From contig CAWECG010000003.1 of assembly GCA_963807605.1 (NCBI GenBank), positions 1 to 64,000 on the forward strand: 64,000 nucleotides of DNA, written 5' to 3'. Positions 39,686 to 51,990 of this stretch are shown here, in pieces. Source of the DNA: Candidatus Bathyarchaeota archaeon. Lineage in GTDB: Archaea > Thermoproteota > Bathyarchaeia > 40CM-2-53-6 > RBG-13-38-9. Each line of letters opens with the position of its first letter. Position 1 is the stretch's first letter. The notes beneath the pieces are model-generated. The model was given only the letters and a program-made list of their open reading frames with translations. It had not been told where the DNA came from and searched no databases. The position numbers and the translations under genes were made by a program.

Positions 39686-39704
39686 TGTCCCTTGGTGAGC
39701 ACAC

Positions 39705-39824
<120 letters not shown>

Positions 39825-41959: not shown

Positions 41960-42417
41960 ATTAAATGACTGTTTTCAATCACAAATTTAAGCTTGGTGTG
42001 CACTTAACACAGCGTGTGCGCTAGAAACCATACGCGCGCGCACTACAATAACGGCTCGCTACGCTCGCCGAGTCCGAAGAACGGATGAATTGCGATTCTA
42101 CTGTCTCTCGATTCAGTTGGAGCGTTCAAAGTACTTTCTAAAATCACTTTCAGGCGTGAGCGATCAAGCGACGCATCGCCTGGCGGAAACGTTCCTCGCT
42201 CTCACGCAGGACTTGCTCCGCGTTCTTTTGCCGGGTAATGTCTCGCGCAATTGTTGAAGCACCAACTATCTTGTCGGCAGAATTTGAACTCTAGTTTTGT
42301 GTGTGCTCACCAGCTATGGCGACGACGACCAAAAGCGCGCTCTTCCGTTTTGGAGTATAGGTGGATAGCAAAGAGATTTAAAATATTCTAATAATAATTT
42401 CAGTCTGGGGATTAAGA

Positions 42418-43026
42418 ATGGCAAACCCAACAGACGGAAAATTGAACTTGCTGACTGATAAGAACAGCGTTTTGATATTAGTTGACTATCAACCTTCGAT
42501 GTTCAAGAGCGTTAGTTCGGGGGACAAAACAATAATTAAGAAGGCGACAATTTGTGCAGCAAAAGCCGCAAGCATCCTAGGAGTTCCTGTCGTTTTGTCG
42601 TCAATTAATCCTAAATCTCTAGGGGAGTTTATTCCAGAAATCACTAAATTGTTTCCAGAGCAGGAAGTATTTGCACGAAAGATACCGAGTTTTGATGCTT
42701 TTGAAGATGAGAGAACCTGGAGTGCTGTCAAGAAATCAGGGAGAAAGAAATTAGTTATTTCAGGATTGTGGACAAGTATGTGCTTTGCGTACACCGCTCT
42801 TCATGCTTTGAAAGAAGGGTACGAAGTTTATGGATTAATTGATGCTGCTGGTGATTCTACACTTGATGCGCATAGATACGGCGTCGAGAGAATGTTACAG
42901 GCTGGAGTAATTCCAATTACTGTAGAGTCATTGGTGTCGGAATGGATGCACGACTGGGGAAATCCAAAAGCAGGCGAGCTTGTTAAAGAAGTTTATTCGA
43001 AGTATGGCGCAATGATTGGACTGTAA
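42418..43026 (+). CDS. Isochorismatase family hydrolase (YcaC-like)
   Basis: LILVDYQP, GRKKLVISGLWTSMC, DAAGD, RMLQAG. Confidence 0.9.
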   Translation: MANPTDGKLNLLTDKNSVLILVDYQPSMFKSVSSGDKTIIKKATICAAKAASILGVPVVLSSINPKSLGEFIPEITKLFPEQEVFARKIPSFDAFEDERTWSAVKKSGRKKLVISGLWTSMCFAYTALHALKEGYEVYGLIDAAGDSTLDAHRYGVERMLQAGVIPITVESLVSEWMHDWGNPKAGELVKEVYSKYGAMIGL

Positions 43027-43104
43027 CTCCAGTTGAAATGAATTGTTGCTAAACCTACTCCCTATTTTTTTACCTAGTAATTGATCAAAAACATCTTCTC
43101 TAAT

Positions 43105-43340
43105 GTTGTGTGTGCGCACGATCTCTTGGTGCGAGCATCCAAATTTGGACTAGTATGTGTGTGTGCCATAGTTGGTGAGGAGCATCTGAAATTGAACTGT
43201 TAGAGCAGGATTTTTGTGTGTGTGCTCACCAAGGGATGCACACACACACAAAATCAATACCAAGCGGTTCAATTCTAGATGCTCTCACCAGCTAAGGCAC
43301 ACACACAAATCATAATCTAATGGCTCGCTACCCTCGCCAA
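43105..43340. repeat. Mini-array of four 14-bp cores separated by 32/45/45-bp units
   Basis: Cores at 43120, 43166, 43225, 43284; units are related (AGCATC...TGTGTG) and the third is inverted. Confidence 0.88.
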
Positions 43341-43747
43341 AGCATCAAGAGCTTGATAACCTCCGGCTTCAGCAGTTTTATTTCGATACGAGTTGGCGCG
43401 AATCAGTCGCAGAAAGTTCCTGGCTTCAGGAGCCGTATGTGCGGCAGCTTTCGGTTCAGGTTACACATGGAGGGACAAGCTGTCCTCGCTGACAGAGATG
43501 TTTCATGACCATACTGATAATGTGGATGAATCACCGTAATCTATTCAATTACATCAGGCGAATTGACAGGAGGTTCATACTCTTCAATGGCCTCTTGCTT
43601 TTGTTCGTCACTGTGATTCCATTTCCACATCCCTCGTGGCAGAGCATATACTGAGCAATGATGCCAATATTCTTCACCCTAACGATCAAAGAATCATAAG
43701 AACAGCGGTAACTTCTTGCGTATTCTTCAGTAATACATCAAAGGGTA

Positions 43748-44643: not shown

Positions 44644-45540
44644 ATGAAGCTCACAGAGGATATTAATGCACTAAAGAAAAAGAAGAACGCAATTATCCTC
44701 GTGCACAATTATCAGGCACCTGAGATATATGAAATCGCAGATTTCATAGGTGATTCCTTAGAACTCAGTAGAAAAAGTACTGGTACAGATGCAGATTACA
44801 TCATATTCTGTGGAGTAGACTTCATGGCGGAGACCGCCTCCATACTAAACCCGACCAAGACTATTTTGCTCCCTGTTCTGCAAGCACAGTGCCCTATGGC
44901 GGCAATGGCTGATGCTGAAGGAGTCAGGATGCTGAAAAAACAGTATCCCGATGCAGCCGTAGTAAGCTATGTAAACACATCAGCAGAGGTTAAAGCTGAA
45001 TCCGACATCTGTTGCACCAGCGCAAACGCTGTTCAAGTCGTGAACTCACTGAGCCAAGAGAAAGTGATCTTCGTCCCTGATGAAAACCTTGCACTATACG
45101 TTGCAGAGCATACCAAGAAACGCATAATTTCTTGGAAAGGCTGGTGCTATGTTCACACAAAATTCTCGGTAGAAGGGTTAAAGGGAGCCCGAAGACTGCG
45201 TCCGAATGCTGAAGTTATTGTGCATCCTGAATGCAGAACTGAGATCATCGATCTCGCCGACTATGTCTGCAGCACAAGCCAGATGATGAGACGGGTAGGA
45301 GAAAGCAATAAGGATGAATTCATAATTGGAACAGAGGTGGGGATGATAGAACGGTTGAAAATGGAATACCCGACCAAAACCTTCTACGCCGTGCCGCCTG
45401 GAGCTACTTGCATTCAAATGAAGAAGAACAGACTTGAATCAGTTCTAGAAGCATTAGAAAAAGAACAATATGTGATAAATGTCCCTGAGGAAGTGAGATT
45501 GAAAGCTAAGAAAGCCTTGGATATGATGCTAGCACTTTGA
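44644..45540 (+). CDS. nadA: Quinolinate synthase
   Basis: HNYQ, GDSLELS, FCGVDFMAE, YVNTSA, CCTSANA, HPEC. Confidence 0.95.
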   Translation: MKLTEDINALKKKKNAIILVHNYQAPEIYEIADFIGDSLELSRKSTGTDADYIIFCGVDFMAETASILNPTKTILLPVLQAQCPMAAMADAEGVRMLKKQYPDAAVVSYVNTSAEVKAESDICCTSANAVQVVNSLSQEKVIFVPDENLALYVAEHTKKRIISWKGWCYVHTKFSVEGLKGARRLRPNAEVIVHPECRTEIIDLADYVCSTSQMMRRVGESNKDEFIIGTEVGMIERLKMEYPTKTFYAVPPGATCIQMKKNRLESVLEALEKEQYVINVPEEVRLKAKKALDMMLAL

Positions 45541-47021
45541 AGACGGACATCCTGATAATCGGCAGTGGAATAGCAGGCCTTTGCTTTGCATTCAAGGCAA
45601 TGGATTATGGCAAGATAATAGTCCTCACGAAGAAGAGCGCTGCAGAGTCTAATACCAACTATGCTCAAGGAGGAATCGCTGCAGCCATAGGCGAGGATGA
45701 CTCCCCCCAGCTTCACTTCCAAGACACAGTAAGAACTGGTTGTGGCCTGTGCGATGAGAATGCTGTGAAGACTCTGGTAGAGAACGGACCCGATGTTGTA
45801 AGAGAGCTCGTATCACTCGGAGTCAAAATTGACCAGGATGATAAAGGCGGACTTTCGCTAAGTAGGGAAGCAGGTCATAGCAGGAACAGGATTGTCCATG
45901 TTGGGGATAGAACAGGAAGAGCAATTGAAAGGGCATTAGTAGCTAAGGTCAGAAGAGGAAAATCGATAGAGATCTATGAAGACTGTCTCACCATTGACTT
46001 GATCGTTGACAACAGACGGTGCTATGGCGCTAAAGTGTTAGATGTTATGACTCGAAAGATTTTCAATATCTATTCTAAGGTTACAGTTCTGGCGACTGGT
46101 GGAATAGGACAGGTATACCAGAGGACATCGAATCCGAAGGTTGCGACGGGGGACGGGATCGCTATGGCCTATAGGGCAGGAGCAACTATCAAAGATATGG
46201 AGTTCATACAGTTTCACCCAACCACCTTCCACAAAGATTGTAAAGTGGCCTTTCTAATTTCCGAGACTCTCCGTGGCGAGGGAGCCATTTTAAGAAACGA
46301 GTCTGGACAGGCGTTTATGGCATCATATGATGAGAGGGGGGATTTGACACCCCGTGACATCGTTTCCAGAGCTGTATTCAACGAAATGAAGAAAGGCTCT
46401 GTATACGTTGACATCAGGCATAGGGGAGAGAAATTCATCAAAGAACGTTTCCCCTATCTCTATCGCAGATGCCTACATTACGGCGTGAATATCACCAAAG
46501 ACCTCATACCAGTGACTCCAGCAGCCCACTACCTTTGCGGAGGCATCAAGACAAACATCTATGGCGAAACAGATGTTGAAAGGTTACTCGCCTTCGGCGA
46601 GTGTGCTTGTACATGTGTGCATGGAGCGAATCGTTTAGCTAGCAACTCTTTACTGGAATCAATTGTCTTCAGCTTCATGGCCGCGAAGAGAATCAAGAAT
46701 TATCTTGACACTAGTGTGCATGAAGTTGAGGCTAAACCTTCTAGAATTAGGATCATCAGAGGATCTCGAAAGACTCAGAAGATTAAGAGAGAGTTGCAGA
46801 AGTTGATGTGGACCCATGTTGGCATAGTGAGAGAGGAGAGAGGGCTTGAATATGCCTTAAAGAACCTTGGTGAACTTGAGGCCGAGACTTACAAGATTGC
46901 CGAAGAGGGATTGAGCCCAGACCTGATAGAATTAAAGAACATGATAACAGTTTCCAGACTAATCACCCAAGCAGCATTGGATAGGCGGGAGAGTGTAGGC
47001 ACCCACTATATTCTCCGGTAA
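45537..47021 (+). CDS. nadB: L-aspartate oxidase
   Basis: IGSGIAG, AQGGIAA, QFHPT, SETLRGEG, HGANRLASNSLLE. Confidence 0.95.
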   Translation: MKTDILIIGSGIAGLCFAFKAMDYGKIIVLTKKSAAESNTNYAQGGIAAAIGEDDSPQLHFQDTVRTGCGLCDENAVKTLVENGPDVVRELVSLGVKIDQDDKGGLSLSREAGHSRNRIVHVGDRTGRAIERALVAKVRRGKSIEIYEDCLTIDLIVDNRRCYGAKVLDVMTRKIFNIYSKVTVLATGGIGQVYQRTSNPKVATGDGIAMAYRAGATIKDMEFIQFHPTTFHKDCKVAFLISETLRGEGAILRNESGQAFMASYDERGDLTPRDIVSRAVFNEMKKGSVYVDIRHRGEKFIKERFPYLYRRCLHYGVNITKDLIPVTPAAHYLCGGIKTNIYGETDVERLLAFGECACTCVHGANRLASNSLLESIVFSFMAAKRIKNYLDTSVHEVEAKPSRIRIIRGSRKTQKIKRELQKLMWTHVGIVREERGLEYALKNLGELEAETYKIAEEGLSPDLIELKNMITVSRLITQAALDRRESVGTHYILR

Positions 47022-47101
47022 TCTTTTTTCGAGTATACCAAGACAATCACTACTGCAAGGGATTTCATAAGATATTGTAAACAACTCATTGGGAGTTATA
47101 G

Positions 47102-47938
47102 ATGAGAGCAAATGAAATAATTGAAATGGCTCTGAATGAAGATCGTTGCGATGAAGATATTACTACTAACGCTCTAATCCCTGAAGGTTCTAAGACGAAA
47201 GGAGCTATTTATGCAGAAGAAAGCGGTGTAATTGCAGGTTTAGAGGCAGCACGAGACGTCTTCCGCTATGATGACTCAGACGTGACCTTCACGCCTCTGG
47301 TAAGAGACGGTGACTATGTTCGCTCTGGTCAAAGACTTGCTGAAGTTGAAGGTGATGCTAGAGTAATTTTGTCACGCGAAAGAGTTGCGCTAAACTTTCT
47401 CCAGCATCTCTCTGGCATAGCTACTGCTACAAACAGATATGTGAAGAAAGCTGGGAAAACCATAATCTTAGACACTAGAAAAACAACCCCAGGGTTGCGT
47501 GAATTGGAGAAGTATGCGGTGAGAATAGGGGGCGGATATAACCATCGATTGAGTCTAGCTGAGATGGGTATGATCAAGGATAACCATATTGCATTTATTG
47601 GAAGTATCAAAAAAGCGGTGAAGCTTGTCAGAGGGTACTCACACAAGAAGATTGTGGTAGAAACTAAAACGATTAATGAAGTACTGGAGGCAGTAGAAGC
47701 CAAACCTGACAGGATAATGTTAGATAATATGTCCCTTAAAGAAATGAAAAAGGCCATAGAGATCATACGCTCAGCCAATACCAGGATAGAGATAGAGGTC
47801 TCCGGAGGCGTTACATTAGAGAATATTGCGGAGATCGCAAAGCTCGAACCCGACTATGCCTCCTGTGGAGCGTTGACCCATTCAGTTAAGGCATTAGAAA
47901 TGAGTTTAGAGCTAGACCAAACTATTGCCAACCGTTAA
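47102..47938 (+). CDS. nadC: Nicotinate-nucleotide diphosphorylase (carboxylating)
   Basis: LDTRKTTPGLR, NHR, IKDNH, IMLDNM, SGG, GALTHS. Confidence 0.95.
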   Translation: MRANEIIEMALNEDRCDEDITTNALIPEGSKTKGAIYAEESGVIAGLEAARDVFRYDDSDVTFTPLVRDGDYVRSGQRLAEVEGDARVILSRERVALNFLQHLSGIATATNRYVKKAGKTIILDTRKTTPGLRELEKYAVRIGGGYNHRLSLAEMGMIKDNHIAFIGSIKKAVKLVRGYSHKKIVVETKTINEVLEAVEAKPDRIMLDNMSLKEMKKAIEIIRSANTRIEIEVSGGVTLENIAEIAKLEPDYASCGALTHSVKALEMSLELDQTIANR

Positions 47939-49786: not shown

Positions 49787-50033
49787 CTCACCAAGGGATA
49801 CGACGACGATATCCCTTGGTGAGCACACACAATATTTAATCCTTTTAGGGGAAGAATCCCCTAAAACCCTCTTGCTTGAAGTATTGGTGTATCACCAAGG
49901 ATGATTCACTTGGACTGGCGGCGCACACTAGATGGGATAAAGTCTTGGCGAGGTAACTTTAAGATTCTAGTCTCCGCTTCAATAAGTGTATTACTCTAGC
50001 GATTGCCTCAGCTTTTGTTGGAAGTGAGATTGA

Positions 50034-51431: not shown

Positions 51432-51814
51432 CCAGCAGTATCTCCTAGCCTTTGATTGTTGAAGAGTTTAGGTAGATATGTCGCATAGGTTTTGAAACAA
51501 GCTTTCTACTAGCTCAAGAAGGTTGTACTTTGCACTTTCGCGCTTAGAAATCCTGATCATGAGTACTTCTTCCCGAAATAGGTTTCCCTGATCGTCAAAT
51601 TTTTCCAGTTTACTTTAGTCGGAGTGCGCTAGCGATGTTGATGGTTAAAGATGTGATACATGTCTTCTTATGGCCTAAAAAAATCAGCATTTAAACAATC
51701 CGGGACAACACGACTGCACTGGGTCCCAGCTCCTCGCGGGGGGCCGGTTTTGATAACGTATGTAACGCTGTTTTCGATCTCTGCGACGCGCCCTAGAATC
51801 ACTTCATTCTAGAA

Positions 51815-51990
51815 ATGTCCATGTGGATGTCCACGTCGGAAAACCAGCATCCACGTGACCACACCAAACAGCCAGTTATCTATATCCCCCTCACCAGCTA
51901 ATGCACACACACAAAAATTAACCTGCTCTAACGGTGCAAATTACGATGCTCACCAACTGGAGCACAGACAAGTTGTCTCGCTCCTGCGCC
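51815..51990 (+). repeat. Divergent TIR-like arm plus two cores 59 bp apart
   Basis: ...gttatctatatcccc|core 51890|45-bp unit|core 51949. Confidence 0.8.

Follow-up and report, generated by a model that had tools for sequence, protein, structure and literature searches.

The repeat patch at positions 43107-43345 of the window, the 64-kb stretch of archaeal DNA analysed here, is probably a scar field of casposon-type integration, in which three and a half copies of a module of ~50-60 bp each are joined into a chain. The patch is no CRISPR-like array, nor does it consist of mini-elements inserted one after another, and it forms one small piece of a genome-wide field; the window takes up the initial 64 kb of contig C3 in the genome (G000; 2.65 Mb, five contigs) of an uncultured Bathyarchaeia archaeon. 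A module consists of a 14-bp core, a unit of ~33 nt at the GGTGAG end of that core, and a T-rich stretch with (TG)n at its end. The CRISPR adaptation machinery is proposed to descend from casposons, and to our knowledge there are few natural cases that lie between a big transposon with one site and short inserts in an array. Three things are unusual in this genome and those related to it: the target occurs at more than 100 copies, inserts are short as well as long, and gene cassettes are bracketed. If a casposase makes these joints, they would offer a natural test bed for the choice of leader-like sites by Cas1 and for the DNA that it accepts.

Geometry and parts of the patch

A preliminary description of this DNA placed cores at 43120, 43166, 43225 and 43284, separated by 32, 45 and 45 bp, and the sequence bears these out. 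The same is true of the 59-bp spacing described at a second site, where a core at 51890-51903 is followed by a 45-bp stretch and then by a core at 51949-51962, and of the kinship of the three inter-core stretches of the patch, which match the unit family with nhmmer E values of 1e-3, 1e-13 and 1e-14. One unit had been described as inverted, and the two full unit copies indeed form an inverted pair with 77% identity. The unit length, which had been taken as fixed at 45 bp, is not: core-to-core gaps that hold a unit span 34-60 bp genome-wide, varying with the lengths of the T run and of the (TG)n run, and 45 bp is near the median. The parts are listed in Table 1.

Table 1 Parts of the patch and of the second site with 59-bp spacing (window positions)
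Feature	Position	Strand	Relation or evidence
(TG)4 tail	43107-43114	+	3' end of the isochorismatase-carrying segment; adjoins degenerate module 1
Degenerate core GATCTCTTGGTGCG	43120-43133	+	Type B-related; within a weak nhmmer match at 43109-43152 (E 9.5e-4)
Truncated unit, 22 nt, AGCATCC..TTTGGAC..	43134-43155	+	nhmmer, sequence
(TG)5 tail of module 1	43156-43165	+	Joined to the CC end of core 43166-43179
Core type A, CCATAGTTGGTGAG	43166-43179	+	Core pattern scan
Unit, full copy	43180-43214	+	nhmmer E 1.2e-13; GAGAGCA-like block and AATTGAAC..GTTAGAG block (conservation profile)
(TG)5 tail of module 2	43215-43224	+	Joined to the GGTGAG end of the lone core 43225-43238
Lone core type B, CATCCCTTGGTGAG on the - strand	43225-43238	-	Both ends adjoin a tail
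(CA)6 on the + strand = (TG)6 tail of module 3 on the - strand	43239-43250	-	Sequence
Unit, full copy, inverted	43251-43283	-	nhmmer E 1.2e-14
Core type A, CCTTAGCTGGTGAG on the - strand	43284-43297	-	Core pattern scan
(TG)5 tail and GCGAG-GTAGCGAGC arm, a third kind of DNA end	43298-43345	-	Meets the CC end of core 43284-43297
Casposon terminal-repeat arm, 85 nt, ending TATATCCCC	51803-51889	+	Adjoins a core; nhmmer E 1.9e-26
Second site: core A, (CA)5, unit, degenerate core	51890-51962	-	Sequence, nhmmer

The conserved blocks of the unit at 43180-43214 may represent the recognition part of a casposase target, and the lone core at 43225-43238, judged from its sequence, has the geometry of a junction between two neighbouring inserts, as does every inner core of an array in a related genome (L068, described below). 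The inverted unit at 43251-43283 shares 93-96% identity with copies at C3:457438, C1:396976 and C4:721448 (blastn). At the right-hand end of the patch, (CA)5 on the + strand precedes the repeated GCGAG-type arm (43308-43345). Tail and arm together (43298-43345) have 98% identity to C3:455353-455399 and C1:400168-400213, and the arm has ~28 copies in the genome, against 2-9 for shuffled words. The two cores of the second site differ from each other at 5 of 14 positions.

Repeats of several kinds lie in and around the patch. The repeated arm GCGAGCGTAGCGAGC, with ~28 copies genome-wide, is found in the window at 42054-42068 and, inside the interval 43308-43345, at 43323-43337; 10-15 nt, or ~60 nt in a longer variant, come after it, ahead of a simple-repeat tail that is joined to a core. 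Read inwards, this arm begins ATGGCTCGCTAC.., so that it may contain a gene start. A perfect (CA)58 run of 116 bp, in the window interval 39686-39822, begins 8 bases past a type-B core that is itself adjoined by an arm ending ..TATATCCCC; the tail is of the same kind as those in the patch and far longer. A short palindrome, A-GCGCGC(GC)-T, recurs at units or arms that are cut short, at 42336-42346 in the window and elsewhere, for example at C1:358441 and C4:723090.

The genes around the patch encode an isochorismatase, a fragment of an EamA protein and NadABC. The isochorismatase piece, 42306-43114, is bounded on one side by a core (42306-42319) with (CGA)3 and on the other by the (TG)4 at 43107; both of its 3' tails meet the CC end of a core, and a single two-ended insertion therefore cannot yield it. 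For the isochorismatase gene with its short flanks (42376-43068), the closest counterpart, at 93% identity, is found in an unrelated context on a metagenome contig (L108), where the modules are absent. No orthologous empty site was found in five relatives, in which the DNA of 41400-45600 matches repeats only; counterparts of the genes around the patch are missing from the relatives searched. The genes nadA, nadB and nadC (window 44644-47938) lie inside the core-rich island. A search of five genomes from the same family yielded no nadA, and genes for NAD synthesis may therefore have arrived with the island.

The genome-wide module and the polarity of its junctions

An iterated nhmmer search gives 83 matches to the unit, spread over all four large contigs and mostly single, with some in tandem or inverted. 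Cores of two types, CC-TAGCTGGTGAG and TGTCCCTTGGTGAG, number 109 under a strict pattern, 50-70 times the frequency expected by chance. The corresponding core 11-mers occur 69 and 29 times in the 2.65-Mb genome, against about one occurrence for shuffled words (maximum 4), and a search that allows up to 2 mismatches returns ~176 matches, with ~30 expected by chance. The cores are strongly clustered: 88 of the 109 lie in 15 clusters that make up 6.4% of the genome, and the cluster in the window (32963-55793; 11 cores) is the second in size. They also avoid long open frames, with 11 of the 109 falling within frames of at least 150 aa, though such frames cover 76% of the genome. In the same family, the unit is multicopy in four of eight genera, and it was not found in 25 genomes taken from the nine other searched families of the order.

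Within the module, the conservation profile highlights CTGGTGAGAGCA and then, about five variable bases further on, AATTTGAACCGTTAG; the two conserved blocks of the unit itself are AATTTGAACC and GAGAGCA. No consensus RNA fold was obtained on either strand (alifold -1.3 and 0 kcal; mean z-scores 0.2 and -0.75). Two conserved DNA blocks without a consensus fold would fit a two-part protein-binding site in the DNA. A Mantel test gives no significant co-inheritance of the unit with the variable half of its core (r 0.08, p 0.12).

These properties bear on the possibility that the modules are host repeats unrelated to transposition, either REP/BIME-like sequences or small RNA genes, of which casposons merely make use. 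The modules are indeed multicopy, intergenic and frequently arranged as inverted pairs, but they form neither a hairpin nor a conserved fold on either strand, and their copies are concentrated in the 15 clusters, alongside casposon ends. ARAGORN and Rfam searches of the patch return no family at the gathering score, and the weak matches to long-hairpin microRNA models involve the whole inverted pair only. We give this explanation very little credence. A REP/BIME repeat or structured small RNA had also been tried as a candidate identity for the unit and was rejected on the missing hairpin or fold (alifold, z-scores near zero).

The joints between simple repeats and cores follow a strict grammar throughout the genome. 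To the left of + cores, (TG)n is found 51 times and (CA)n once, and (CGT)n 12 times against 3 for (CGA)n; to the right, (CA)n is found 38 times and (TG)n once, and (CGA)n 10 times against none for (CGT)n. At both ends of the core, the 3' end that meets it belongs to the G/T-rich strand, a polarity that 3'-OH strand transfer at both edges of a site would predict. The unit does not behave alike at its two ends. The AGCATC end adjoins the GGTGAG end of a core in 31 cases and the CC end in none, whereas the (TG)n end adjoins the CC end in 16 cases and the GGTGAG end in 13. Since one end is fixed and the other free, the unit and its core constitute one native module, and the joint lies at the tail end only.

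A second recognisable core lies past the tail in 34 of the 55 fairly complete units, in direct orientation in 20 cases and inverted in 14. The core types differ in 12 of the 20 direct cases, and point mutation offers no explanation for this, as, of the seven distal positions, six or seven are not the same in types A and B. Genome-wide, neighbouring cores share their orientation 38 times and are opposed 40 times; adjacent cores of the same orientation are identical in 2 of 38 cases, where 3.2 are expected, and are no more alike than random pairs. The lack of any excess of identical or co-oriented neighbours indicates that most of the field is rearranged, old, or made otherwise.

It is against these counts that the insertion mechanism put forward in the preliminary description has to be set, namely that a mini-element of ~45 bp, made of (CA)n and the unit, was inserted repeatedly into the core with core duplication, giving rise to a proto-CRISPR array. 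The presence of a core at both sides of roughly 34 of 55 units and the three gaps of exactly 45 bp in the window are what such a process would leave, short inserts between direct cores do exist (for example those of 60 and 85 bp in L068), and in vitro the M. mazei casposase can integrate short DNA and even single strands (PMC6977970). However, true joined ends use both core ends, and the AGCATC end of the unit never meets the CC end. Moreover, the flanking cores are of different type in most of the direct cases and inverted in the 14 others, neighbouring cores show no added likeness, the two cores of the second site are themselves dissimilar, and the gap lengths vary. Repeated insertion of a mini-element is therefore improbable, and we retain the native module, joined at its tail, as the preferred reading.

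Facing pairs of cores, head to head with 8-11 nt of (CGA)n or (CGT)n between them, are found at 49787-49823 in the window and at five other places in the genome, for example C3:386181-386217 and C4:721491-721526. Simple target duplication is no explanation for these pairs.

Two other candidates, a tRNA-derived MITE and a REP-like repeat, were abandoned when the casposase element described below and the junction polarity were found. A MITE does not fit a unit whose two ends are dissimilar and of which one is fused to a constant core end; in 26 of 34 cases the cores on either side disagree in type or orientation.

On the opposite strand, the unit resembles the 3' end of a tRNA: GGTTCAAAT is followed by exactly 16 nt ending in CACCA, and the core begins 7 nt before the CCA end. 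The 16-nt spacing equals that between T loop and CCA in the real tRNA genes of this genome, which encode their CCA and include genes with introns. No real tRNA gene (31 ARAGORN and 22 Infernal candidates) ends with the unit or precedes a core, the Rfam tRNA model has no match in the patch even at E 10, and the would-be T stem of the unit is not conserved. The resemblance accordingly rests on the motif, the spacing and the CCA, and we read unit and core as a possible mimic or relic of a tRNA 3' end.

The same resemblance could be taken to mean that the cores are attachment sites of elements whose tyrosine integrase targets tRNA-like sequences, with the units as tRNA 3' fragments left behind by integration and excision; tRNA genes are frequent targets of archaeal integrative elements (excerpts of PMC6563490). 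This is very improbable. The element found between identical cores encodes a casposase and lacks an integrase domain, no real tRNA gene ends with the unit, and neither the strict 3' polarity nor the variable simple-repeat tails are expected from conservative site-specific recombination.

Casposase elements and an array in a related genome

The genome contains one intact Cas1-family gene (C3:803495-804700, 402 aa) and three fragments. The protein matches Pfam Cas_Cas1 with E 2.7e-49 and aligns over its full length with the M. mazei casposase 6OPM (E 5.7e-72), whereas its best match to a CRISPR Cas1 has E 4e-25. Its nearest public relatives come from MAGs that bear the label uncultured Candidatus Bathyarchaeia. 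An element of 8,980 bp (C3:796434-805413; L035:4935-13914) contains the gene and is enclosed by identical 14-mers at C3:796420 and C3:805414. The core variant in question, CTTTAGCTGGTGAG, is rare, with 3 copies among the 109 cores, and the chance that the second flanking copy would match it is ~0.02. This element is the sole clear duplicated-core pair in the genome and the only one for which duplication is demonstrated. Its tips are inverted (CGA)4/(TCG)4, with terminal repeats of only 12 nt. A unit lies directly outside one of the flanking cores and none lies inside the duplicated cores. The core is thus very probably the target site duplicated by the casposase. The earlier proposal of casposon-type insertion with target duplication stands as far as the core is concerned, which acts as a 14-bp target duplication at an intact casposase element, and falls with respect to the unit, which is no inserted mini-element.

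The other genes of the 8,980-bp element encode a SIR2-like protein, an AAA-ATPase with an HTH domain and a DUF5677 protein, and look like defence cargo. A PolB domain is absent from the element, and no casposon-type PolB was found elsewhere in the genome: PF03175 has no match, and the two matches to PF00136 lie elsewhere (C4:414041 and C3:239508). The 85-nt terminal-repeat arm seen next to the second site of the window (Table 1) has 14 copies in the genome (nhmmer), every one of which adjoins a core, on either side; none of the 14 is paired with another within reach into a whole element, and they are solo. G013, a genome from a different genus, has a casposase gene and, ~1 kb past it, an end of this same kind, then a core and then a unit. 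Across the family, units and casposase genes co-occur by genus, with both present in g1, g2, g3 and g8 and neither in g4, g5 and g6.

The preliminary description had called for a search for longer, polarised arrays in related genomes, and one of these holds a true polarised array. In the Bathyarchaeia MAG L068 (CAYXJU010000050.1, 42-9114), six direct cores share one orientation and a unit follows the last of them. The inserts between the cores measure 450, 85, 1328, 7025 and 60 bp, the 7025-bp insert containing a casposase gene, and each insert has a left tip of CA/CGA type and a right tip of TG/TCG/CCC type. This array is the most CRISPR-like arrangement seen in the system.

These elements also allow us to weigh the view that core, unit and (TG)n together constitute the terminal repeat of a non-autonomous, casposon-derived family, with the unit bound by the casposase as an element end. 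The patch would then consist of abutting solo ends of nested or tandem elements, and its inner cores would be new targets. Such an arrangement is conceivable in that the (TG)n end of the unit shows the behaviour of all other joined DNA ends, solo terminal repeats have been described for casposons (PMC4779613), and nested insertion into an inner core would account for direct tandem modules. There is also an 11.5-kb candidate element, C1:409654-421124, with inverted modules at both ends within matching type-B cores; these cores, however, are of the commonest B variant (17 copies), so that their match could be due to chance. The casposase elements here, in G013 and in L068 have the unit outside the duplicated cores and on one side only, and what lies inside the modules' own cores varies from copy to copy. 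We consider it rather unlikely that the module is an element end, and continue to treat it as a landing site.

Proposed mechanism and comparison with known systems

We propose that unit and core together form a two-part target of the casposase, a reading drawn from the tRNA-like end and from the needs of known casposases. The core would be cut with a 14-bp stagger and duplicated, and the adjoining unit would serve as the recognition region, by analogy the counterpart of the ~30 bp of tRNA-Leu gene needed by the casposase of Methanosarcina mazei. The latter enzyme requires the 14-bp duplicated site together with 30 bp from the tRNA-Leu gene lying upstream (PMC6977970), and the casposase of A. 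boonei needs a leader-like stretch beside its target (excerpts of PMC6614799). The (TG)n, (TCG)n and (GGT)n tracts and the ..CCCC runs would represent the 3' ends of DNA pieces joined to cores by the casposase, and some of these pieces would themselves have ended in a module. Joining of tail to core, in either orientation, could then chain modules to give a direct pair, a lone core with two tails or an inverted copy. Several findings weigh against this scheme: core duplication is demonstrated for a single element, neighbouring cores elsewhere do not pair as duplicates, the intact element lacks PolB and has short terminal repeats, no real tRNA gene ends with the unit, unit similarity does not follow the core's variable half, and no orthologous empty site was found.

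For the patch, this scheme would involve four steps. The tail of the isochorismatase piece would have been joined to the degenerate module 1, whose own tail would have gone to the core of module 2. The tails of module 2 and of the inverted module 3 would have been joined to the two ends of the lone core B, and the tail of the GCGAG-type arm to the core of module 3. Modules may have come to lie at the ends of mobile pieces by the carry-over of flanking target during element movement; single-end joining, or later recombination between cores and simple repeats, are other possible routes.

A broader scheme, which we advance tentatively, is that a casposase without Cas2 captures DNA in these Bathyarchaeia. 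Pieces of any origin, gene cassettes among them, with sizes between a few bases and 7 kb, would receive G/T-rich 3' tails and would be joined to a 14-bp site beside a leader-like module that resembles a tRNA end. Copying of this module to new places would multiply the landing site, and the array of L068 and the chains of the patch would be living cases of the intermediate that has been postulated between casposons and CRISPR arrays.

The family-2 casposons of M. mazei (tRNA-Leu, IR1 sites; 6OPM) resemble this system in their 14-bp duplication, one end of which is invariant while the rest varies, and in the flanking sequence resembling a tRNA 3' end that is found beside the duplicated site in both. 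They also form tandem insertions that share the duplicated site, and leave solo terminal repeats (PMC4779613). In contrast to their one or few chromosomal sites, the target described here is scattered over the genome as a module, of which there are ~83 units and 110-150 cores; it involves no real tRNA gene, and tails of (TG)n, (TCG)n or (GGT)n are found on the joined ends. Further differences are the short inserts, the intact element without PolB and with 12-nt terminal repeats, and the fact that most cores cannot be paired as duplicates. Aciduliprofundum boonei offers a second comparison, with a duplicated site of 14-15 bp and an upstream recognition stretch in the 3' end of tRNA-Pro (excerpts of PMC6614799); of the incoming end, no more than a few 3'-terminal nucleotides are important (PMC6977970 and the same excerpts). 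That system, unlike the present one, uses a single genomic site in a real tRNA gene, and neither multicopy targets nor simple-repeat tails are reported for it.

Among other mobile elements, Tn7 at attTn7 and IS elements at REP sequences likewise build stacked and decayed islands by repeated use of one site (PMC4779613). The enzymes belong to another family, and here it is the landing site that has become multiplied, occupying the ends of the pieces in the stack. A literature search found no paper that has casposons in Bathyarchaeia as its subject; the two words occur together in passing only.

With a CRISPR array, the wider system, as seen in L068, shares an alternation of inserted DNA with short direct sites cut by a Cas1-family enzyme, and a recognition region at one end. 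The CRISPR-like micro-array that had been claimed for the patch is nevertheless not supported. Its cores are 14 bp long, of two types and in both orientations, rather than three or more near-identical direct repeats of ~23-50 bp, and they show no conserved repeat fold. There are no unique spacers of near-constant length, and the supposed spacers are units homologous to one another, members of a family of 83, which means that they are not spacer-like and carry no spacer-like information. Cas2 (PF09827) has no match in the genome, and the sole intact Cas1 is casposase-like. A crude scan found no CRISPR array in the genome, its one match being a perfect tandem repeat with a period of 63 bp. This repeat, at C5:36000-36260, has four copies; it is not a CRISPR and is probably a 21-aa protein repeat.
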